Origin: Escherichia coli
Lineage (GTDB): Bacteria > Pseudomonadota > Gammaproteobacteria > Enterobacterales > Enterobacteriaceae
DNA length: 486 nucleotides
Direction: 5' to 3' (one strand)
NCBI RefSeq assembly: GCF_003334255.1
Contig: NZ_QOWU01000232.1
A model generated the notes under the pieces. It ran no database searches. It saw only the letters and a list, made by a program, of their open reading frames with translations, and was not told the origin of the DNA. Every line of letters starts with the position of its first letter. Positions within the stretch are counted from its first letter, which is position 1. The position numbers and the translations under genes were made by a program. This document shows positions 1-486 of this stretch, in pieces.

Positions 1-486
1 GAAGCTGCGCAGCGTTTCCCGGTGCAGGCGGTCGCGGGTGTACTCCACCAGCGGTGTGTCGCCGAGTTTCATGCCTGACAGCCAGCCGCTGCCGTAGGTC
101 AGCCATTCCACGGCGGGCAGGCTGTCCGGTATACAGCGGTTCGCCAGTCCCTGTGCGTTGTACGCATGTCTGGTCTCATGCTGCCAGAGCAGTTCATTCG
201 TCTGCGGATGATGCACCGTCAGGTGTTCACTGGCGAGGCGGCCTTTACTGTCATAACCATAGTGCACCGTCACCCGGTGCCCTTCGCTGATATGGCTGAT
301 GTCTGTCAGCCAGCCGCGTTCGTCATACTGCCACCGCTCTGCGGTTTCGCCATTCACGGTGCGGTGCGTGAGGCGGTCTGCTTCGTCATAGTGCCAGTGG
401 GTGACCAGCCCCTCATCCTCGCTGCGGATAAGTTTGCCGGTCAGGTCGTGGTGATAACGCTGTGTGCGGCCGTCAAAGCCGGTTTC
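1..486 (-). CDS. Rhs-family YD-repeat protein, internal core fragment (partial at both 5' and 3' ends; 162 codons, frame set by position 486)
   Basis: Minus-strand frame beginning at position 486 is open across the entire window, with no stop codon and no start required. The translation contains recurring YD-repeat motifs: RYHHDLTGKLI, HWHYDEADRLT, WQYDERGWLT, HYGYDSKGRLA, YNAQGLA, YGSGWLSG, YTRDRL. These match the Rhs/YD consensus (G-x3-R-Y-x-Y-D-x2-G-R-L) at roughly 21-24 residue spacing. I recognise this from memory as resembling the enterobacterial (E. coli-type) Rhs core; no database search was run, and the specific paralogue cannot be assigned from 162 residues. Confidence 0.9.
25..471 (-). 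repeat. Array of about seven tandem degenerate YD (Rhs) repeat units, defined at protein level within the Rhs core CDS
   Basis: Repeat units in plus-strand coordinates (encoded on minus strand): 427-471 GRTQRYHHDLTGKLI; 367-411 GLVTHWHYDEADRLT; 304-351 GETAERWQYDERGWLT; 232-282 GHRVTVHYGYDSKGRLA; 142-186 WQHETRHAYNAQGLA (degenerate); 64-111 VEWLTYGSGWLSGMKL (degenerate); 25-63 GDTPLVEYTRDRL. Spacing between the Y-D anchor positions is 22, 21, 24 and 31 residues for the first five units. Confidence 0.8.

Follow-up and report, generated by a model that had tools for sequence, protein, structure and literature searches.

The window, a 486-bp stretch of contig NZ_QOWU01000232.1 from E. coli assembly GCF_003334255.1, matches rhsC of E. 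coli K-12 MG1655, and that of many other E. coli, with 100% identity. In MG1655 it corresponds to positions 20001-20486 of the stretch L001, within the minus-strand rhsC gene (L001 18291-22484), and its minus strand translates without a stop into 162 residues, a YD-repeat-rich peptide ETGFDGRTQRYHHDLTGKL...TRDRLHRETLRSF. The fragment aligns with positions 675-836 of the 1261 positions of the NCBIfam model RHS_core (E=2.4e-103, 347 bits), a score that is expected because the fragment spans one eighth of the model. Residues 13-52 of the fragment also match TIGR01643 (YD_repeat_2x), and two Pfam repeat matches and a series of individual YD-repeat motifs are mapped in Table 1. The window is a piece of the conserved rhsC core and encodes about five YD repeats belonging to the central part of the Rhs shell; the original prediction, which had recognized an Rhs core from the DNA letters and their translations, is borne out by both the full identity to rhsC and the place of the fragment in the RHS_core model.

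Table 1. Features mapped on the 486-bp window and their correspondence to RhsC residues.
Feature	Residues	Window position	Strand	Basis
rhsC core ORF, in-frame internal fragment	RhsC 667-828 of 1397	1..486	-	open frame and 100% identity
Pfam RHS_repeat (PF05593), match 1	fragment 14-48	343..447	-	i-E 2.8e-05
Pfam RHS_repeat (PF05593), match 2	fragment 54-88	223..327	-	i-E 0.0015
YD-repeat motif YHHDLTGKL	RhsC 677-685	430..456	-	motif mapping
YD-repeat motif WHYDEADRL	RhsC 697-705	370..396	-	motif mapping
YD-repeat motif WQYDERGWL	RhsC 718-726	307..333	-	motif mapping
YD-repeat motif HYGYDSKGRL	RhsC 741-750	235..264	-	motif mapping
Degenerate YD-repeat motif HAYNAQGL	RhsC 773-780	145..168	-	motif mapping

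Among 5,426 complete E. coli genomes, 3,876 contain the window at a coverage of at least 80%; the number of matching places per genome has a median of 3 and a maximum of 5, and rhsA was found independently in a second MG1655 stretch (L002). A protein homology search with the 162-residue translation yielded, for the most part, short partial E. coli sequences. Two plus-strand ORFs at 54-290 (78 codons) and 299-391 (30 codons) are antisense to rhsC; they were rejected as genes, since a GC-rich coding region is expected to contain shadow ORFs and there is no sign that these two are anything else.

Against RHS_core (NF041261, an equivalog model whose curated cutoff is 2000 bits), full-length RhsC scores 2683.5 bits, and its residues 1-1247 align with model positions 1-1261. 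The protein is built of DUF6531 (residues 46-123), YD repeats, PF03527/TIGR03696 (the TIGR03696 match extending over residues 1170-1247), the core end and a 150-residue tip, in this order. The hyperconserved PxxxxDPxGL core end lies outside the window and reads PISNIDPLGL (residues 1238-1247). Profile searches matched no family to the tip (residues 1248-1397) or to YbfB, the putative immunity protein of the RhsC element.

Over its whole length, the window can be aligned with the YD-repeat shell of solved T6SS Rhs effectors, namely P. aeruginosa Tse5 (8cp6; Tse5 residues 577-731, E=2.4e-20), Salmonella bongori Rhs (8qja), A. baumannii Tse15 (8uxt) and Photorhabdus Rhs (7q97), which are distant relatives in sequence but resemble RhsC in their DUF6531, YD-repeat and Rhs-associated-core architecture. 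By homology with these effectors, the RhsC shell would form a beta-cocoon around a variable C-terminal toxin, which would be freed after the DPxGL motif and which, in relatives, is delivered by the T6SS through VgrG or PAAR; by the same analogy, RhsC itself may be a delivered and toxic protein. In RhsC, the PAAR motif gave a faint partial match (E=0.24), no vgrG or T6SS gene lies within 20 kb of K-12 rhsC, and an N-terminal PAAR/VgrG-binding module combined with linked vgrG/T6SS genes is not what K-12 RhsC presents. The strain is without a T6SS (PMC3032704). Rhs relatives in Salmonella and Serratia adjoin vgrG or T6SS genes.

Composite structure and distribution of the RhsC element

Rhs elements are known to comprise a G+C-rich core of ~1,200 residues, an A+T-rich C-terminal extension and a downstream small ORF (PMC2935791), and the locus analysed here is itself such an element, the RhsC element of E. 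coli K-12 (RhsA-B-C-F subfamily of Hill; clade I of Jackson et al. 2009). It spans L001 13105-22674 (9.57 kb) and is flanked by host genes of ~45-58% GC. The mean of the whole element is as low as 49.8% GC because the GC-rich core is combined with AT-rich parts, as in the "genetic composite" of Hill: the rhsC tip has 41.6% GC, ybfB 31.2%, ybfC 36.7% and the ISAs1 (H-rpt) remnants 38-41%, and an orphan tip falls within 31-42%. That orphan tip belongs to a core fragment downstream of rhsC (together L001 16414-17934, followed by ybfC), which corresponds to RHS_core model positions 908-1261 and forms a local GC peak of ~63%. Beyond ybfC lie the remnants, three ISAs1/H-rpt transposase pseudogene fragments (L001 13217-15622). 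Orphan core/tip fragments and H-rpt/ISAs1 remnants are known features of Rhs elements (PMC2935791) that are reproduced here.

The element is present in some E. coli strains and absent from others. Using the joined host flanks as query, ybgA and ybfA were found to be adjacent, with the element absent, in 1,311 of the 5,426 complete genomes (~24%). In strain P19_598, for example, ybgA and ybfA lie ~100 bp apart, with ~10 bp (L008 1206-1215) in place of the 9.57-kb element, a clean empty site that is compatible with either insertion or deletion. At the same chromosomal site in E. coli ERL05-1306 (L038 1398-8887), the Rhs core is joined to another C-terminal tip; ybfB is lacking, and the downstream genes are a frameshifted ybfC, one for an NTF2-fold immunity protein and one with DUF6258. 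This locus fits the C-terminal tip displacement of rhs described by Jackson et al. 2009 (PMC2935791). Elsewhere in the chromosome, rhsA and rhsB differ from rhsC in their site, C-terminal tip and immunity genes.

Composition of the rhsC core relative to the host

The window contains 69 A, 147 C, 152 G and 118 T, that is, 299 G+C among 486 bases (61.52%), and this recount agrees exactly with the earlier count of 299 (~61.5%). The GC content of 100-bp sub-windows ranges from 57 to 67%, the high value being spread over the window with no single local spike. As host reference, we used seven MG1655 stretches totalling 340 kb (~7% of the chromosome, 51.5% GC) and the 147 annotated CDS in a codon reference (50,565 codons; GC 52.7%; GC1/2/3 = 60.2/41.5/56.6); the genome-wide GC content of MG1655 is ~50.8%. 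The figures of ~62% for Rhs cores and ~51% for E. coli on which the original prediction relied are reproduced by the rhsC core (61.3%) and the MG1655 sample (51.5%), and the comparison with the host that it suggested gives 61.5% GC for the window against 52.7% for host CDS, with differing codon usage. The prediction had called the window compositionally foreign provided that the host is enterobacterial, and this holds: the host is E. coli, in which the window is atypical in GC and GC3 as well as in codon usage and dinucleotide signature. The alternative that the prediction had left standing, an unremarkable composition in a host of at least 60% GC and matching codon usage, is contradicted by the 51.5% GC of the MG1655 sample.

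That the source organism might itself be GC-rich is suggested by near-identical Rhs fragments in assemblies labelled Streptomyces and Oscillospiraceae. However, the contigs concerned measure 544-2,726 bp and match E. coli rhs genes at 99.8-100% identity, indicating contamination or mis-binning, while the window itself matches E. coli chromosomes at 100% identity and is found in 3,876 of the 5,426 genomes, leaving a GC-rich source with practically no probability.

Among non-Rhs 486-bp windows from the 340 kb of host sequence, mean GC is 51.6% (sd 4.8%) and 0.2% reach 61.5%; those that do sit in fhuB, kdpD, selA and dcd. The GC content of the window is rare in the host, not unique, and by itself would not identify the region. 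The native gene fhuB (L006 8082-10064; GC3 70.3%) contains 486-bp windows of at least 61.5% GC and so equals the window, which shows that foreign DNA in E. coli cannot be diagnosed from GC alone. What is distinctive is a run of ~3.7 kb in which the whole rhsC core, not the window alone, stays at 57-67% GC, together with a GC3 far above the value predicted from the amino acids.

By codon position, the window has GC1/2/3 of 66.0/44.4/74.1. GC1 and GC2 are unremarkable, being reached by 18% and 25% of host segments, respectively; the GC3 of 74.1% is reached by 0.2%. Gly, Arg, Asp, Thr and Tyr abound in YD repeats, and the core as a whole has an excess of Tyr, Thr, Arg, His, Asp and Gly and a shortage of Lys, Phe, Ile and Met. 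Protein-level selection for the residues that these repeats require (Gly, Arg, Asp, Thr, Tyr, Pro) might thus have raised the GC content, a proposal with which the skewed composition of the core and a surplus of ~1-4 GC points over neighbouring genes in the cores of other hosts would agree. When the same 162 residues are encoded with host synonymous preferences, however, the result is 54.5% GC and a GC3 of 55.6%, only 1.8 GC points above host CDS, compared with the 61.5% GC observed. The main excess lies in GC3 (74% versus 55.6% expected), and its +18.5 points over the amino-acid expectation are matched by none of 2,805 host segments.

The complete rhsC core behaves likewise, with 61.3% GC and a GC3 of 71.5%, compared with 70.3% in fhuB, the sampled host gene of highest GC3. 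The K-12 core stands 8.6 GC points and 14.9 GC3 points above host genes. Of the ~9-point GC excess, ~2 points come from amino-acid composition and ~7 from synonymous choice; about four-fifths of the excess is synonymous. Amino-acid demand is largely refuted as the main cause, for which it is very improbable, and is retained as a minor contributor of ~2 points.

The synonymous excess is reflected in codon usage. In the core versus the host, Arg is encoded by CGG in 26% versus 9%, by AGG in 7% versus 1% and by CGT in 16% versus 40% of cases. The core further over-uses GAC (64% versus 35%), CAC (74% versus 44%), GTG (67% versus 38%) and ATA (13% versus 5%), and under-uses CAA (5% versus 36%), ATT (20% versus 53%) and GGT (20% versus 33%). 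The codon-usage G is 99.8 for the window, a value reached by 2.2% of host segments, and 330 for the core (nominal p ~1e-46), reached by 0.8%. E. coli itself makes wide use of many G/C-ending codons, and for this reason the mean codon log-likelihood under host usage did not separate the window (-1.03) from the host (-1.07 +/- 0.08).

A preference for G/C-ending codons could also stem from translational selection of the kind that acts on native genes with high expression, and the over-used CTG, GGC, CGC, ACC and ATC are indeed common in E. coli. Yet CGG, AGG and ATA, which are rare in E. coli, are over-used as well, and CGT and GGT, which are favored in highly expressed E. coli genes, are under-used. 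K-12 is moreover without a T6SS to deploy an Rhs effector (PMC3032704). An origin of the codon bias in translational selection is accordingly less probable still than one in amino-acid demand.

The GC-normalised dinucleotide signature departs from that of the host in the same regions. For the core, delta* x1000 is 118 versus 42 +/- 15 in host segments, of which 0.4% reach 118; for the window it is 189 versus 97 +/- 31, with 0.9% reaching 189. The amino-acid repetitiveness of the YD repeats could contribute to this signature. By the Muto-Osawa/Lawrence-Ochman regressions (Lawrence and Ochman 1997), the GC1 and GC3 values of the core would be those of a genome with ~60-61% GC, and those of the tip would point to ~35-38% GC.

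Related Rhs cores and the origin of the high GC

Over the window, rhsA shares 93% amino-acid identity with rhsC (dS 0.14; GC3 75%), and its composition and dinucleotide signature are the same as those of rhsC (delta* 113.5). More divergent cores, with 64-86% amino-acid identity to the window, are found in E. albertii, Citrobacter, Yokenella, Buttiauxella, Phytobacter, Trabulsiella and Atlantibacter. Their segments have 56-72% GC and a GC3 of 64-90%, compared with flanks of ~50-57% GC, and their dS relative to the window is 0.9-1.4, near saturation, except for the closer of two E. albertii copies (0.37).

The Rhs of Salmonella enterica SPI-6 (L040 434-4603) is 70% identical to the window, over the same residues 667-828. 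Its core has a GC/GC3 of 57.4/63.4, compared with 58.5/65.1 for the adjacent SPI-6 T6SS genes (L040 6189-12344, baseplate). Unlike K-12 rhsC, which is without T6SS neighbours, the SPI-6 Rhs adjoins a T6SS cluster of like composition, an arrangement that hints that the Rhs clade may travel with GC-richer T6SS islands. Directly after the SPI-6 Rhs lies an ankyrin-repeat gene. No close relative of the window core was found in a host of like composition, the nearest case being the Salmonella SPI-6 island at ~58% GC. A contig scan of genomes reached only Enterobacteriaceae and contaminant contigs, and tblastn against plasmids only E. coli/Klebsiella copies and GC-rich Burkholderiaceae.

Farther afield, Rhs genes of the same architecture were compared with their flanking genes (Table 2). 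Cores in these distant hosts differ from their flanks by about -1 to +4 GC points and by -7 to +8 GC3 points, and the surplus of ~1-4 GC points is an amino-acid effect. Rhs cores are not GC-rich by nature; elsewhere, their composition is mostly near that of the host. The gene on the low-GC contig (L044 521-4501), an Rhs with DUF6531, YD repeats and PxxxxDPxGL, has a tip of 46% GC above a core of 36%, the reverse of the E. coli pattern. Papers on Y. entomophaga and on the Salmonella T6SS provided no core-specific GC data.

Table 2. GC/GC3 (%) of Rhs cores and flanking genes in distant hosts.
Host	Stretch	Core GC/GC3	Flank GC/GC3	Remark
Serratia silvae	L041	56.7/60.7	53.5/62.6	housekeeping flanks
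Chitinimonas lacunae	L046	66.4/76.4 and 65.7/76.9	62.9/76.0	two copies
Azoarcus MAG	L045	57.5/67.0	55.0/66.2	
Burkholderia ambifaria	L047	65.3/81.1	66.3/75.1	flank of one gene
Host of ~63% GC	L043	66.8/84.0	62.9/75.9	
Low-GC Logan contig	L044	36.2/24.8		core values only

Most probably, the atypical composition of the rhsC core is a historical relic of a gene pool of ~58-62% GC, partly drifted and carried on an accessory element. The Rhs clade would have evolved in, or would circulate through, a pool of roughly this composition, and would have reached Escherichia on the accessory element, which to this day some strains carry and others lack, its core having since drifted only partly towards the host. 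The high GC would itself be functionless, a by-product of the history of the gene. As to the horizontal origin, which the original prediction named as the classical reading of such composition, the atypical composition has been confirmed; the foreign origin itself, and with it the GC content of the donor, we infer from that composition, as has been done classically.

As a counterpoint, the cores of seven other genera are all GC3-rich (64-90%) despite ~1 synonymous substitution per site relative to the window. So high a GC3 at a dS of ~1 therefore calls for divergence that took place in other hosts, for transfer on repeated occasions, for an ancestor of very high GC or for a maintaining force. 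If long residence were the only cause, the ancestor would have had a GC3 of ~0.88-0.89 by a rough estimate with a two-state model, which is not impossible given one Yokenella core copy with a GC3 of 0.90. Wang, Zhao and Hill reportedly proposed in 1998, as the thesis of their title, that divergence preceded acquisition; the divergence of the Enterobacteriaceae cores fits this order of events, and would also fit a force maintaining GC in situ. Lineages of rhs have been described as ancient in enterobacteria and often gained and lost (Jackson et al. 2009, PMC2935791).

Active maintenance of the GC3 excess in enterobacterial genomes, by GC-biased gene conversion (gBGC) as the 3-5 core copies of a genome frequently recombine or by selection at synonymous sites, would account for a GC3 of 64-90% kept in eight genera despite a dS of ~1. 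The cores are multi-copy (median of 3 places per genome) and classical recombination substrates, and gBGC is documented in bacteria generally, reportedly by Lassalle et al. in 2015. If true, maintenance in situ in hosts of ~51-55% GC would turn Rhs cores into a natural case of gBGC driven by repeats in bacteria. Against it, polarised third-position changes along the rhsA and rhsC lineages comprise 33 from GC to AT versus 12 from AT to GC, implying an equilibrium GC3 of 0.48, and the native kdp operon, as control, gives 86:43 and an implied 0.45 (Fisher p=0.46 versus Rhs). The rhsA/rhsC spectrum is indistinguishable from that of kdp and points to no extra GC-favouring force; in this test, which at 45 changes is of low power and alone cannot separate relic from maintenance, the rhs cores show no sign of a special force and appear to evolve under the ordinary host regime. 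The cores of Serratia silvae, Chitinimonas and Burkholderia, moreover, have little or no GC3 excess, one core has 36% GC, and a literature search found no paper tying Rhs to gBGC. Maintenance is thus an unlikely explanation, though the least unlikely of the alternatives to a relic of a GC-richer gene pool.

Rhs contigs in unrelated assemblies

That E. coli Rhs elements join a GC-rich core to an AT-rich tip has been known since the work of Hill in the 1990s (summarised in PMC2935791). The useful result of our analysis is a quantified confirmation, in which the excess is mainly synonymous, is not general to Rhs cores and belongs to an element that is missing in about a quarter of the genomes. 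A practical point concerns assembly, where the odd composition and multiple copies of the cores plausibly put E. coli Rhs fragments into unrelated assemblies and MAG bins. Short contigs in an assembly labelled Streptomyces griseoloalbus JCM 4480 and in an Oscillospiraceae MAG are 99.8-100% identical to E. coli rhsA/rhsB cores, and similar Rhs contigs occur in Lentisphaerae and Akkermansia MAGs (stretches L033 1-544, L009 1-2726, L010 and L012). These contigs represent contamination or mis-binning in GTDB species representatives, plausibly caused by the assembly of multi-copy cores as short contigs of 62-64% GC, unlike the rest of E. coli.
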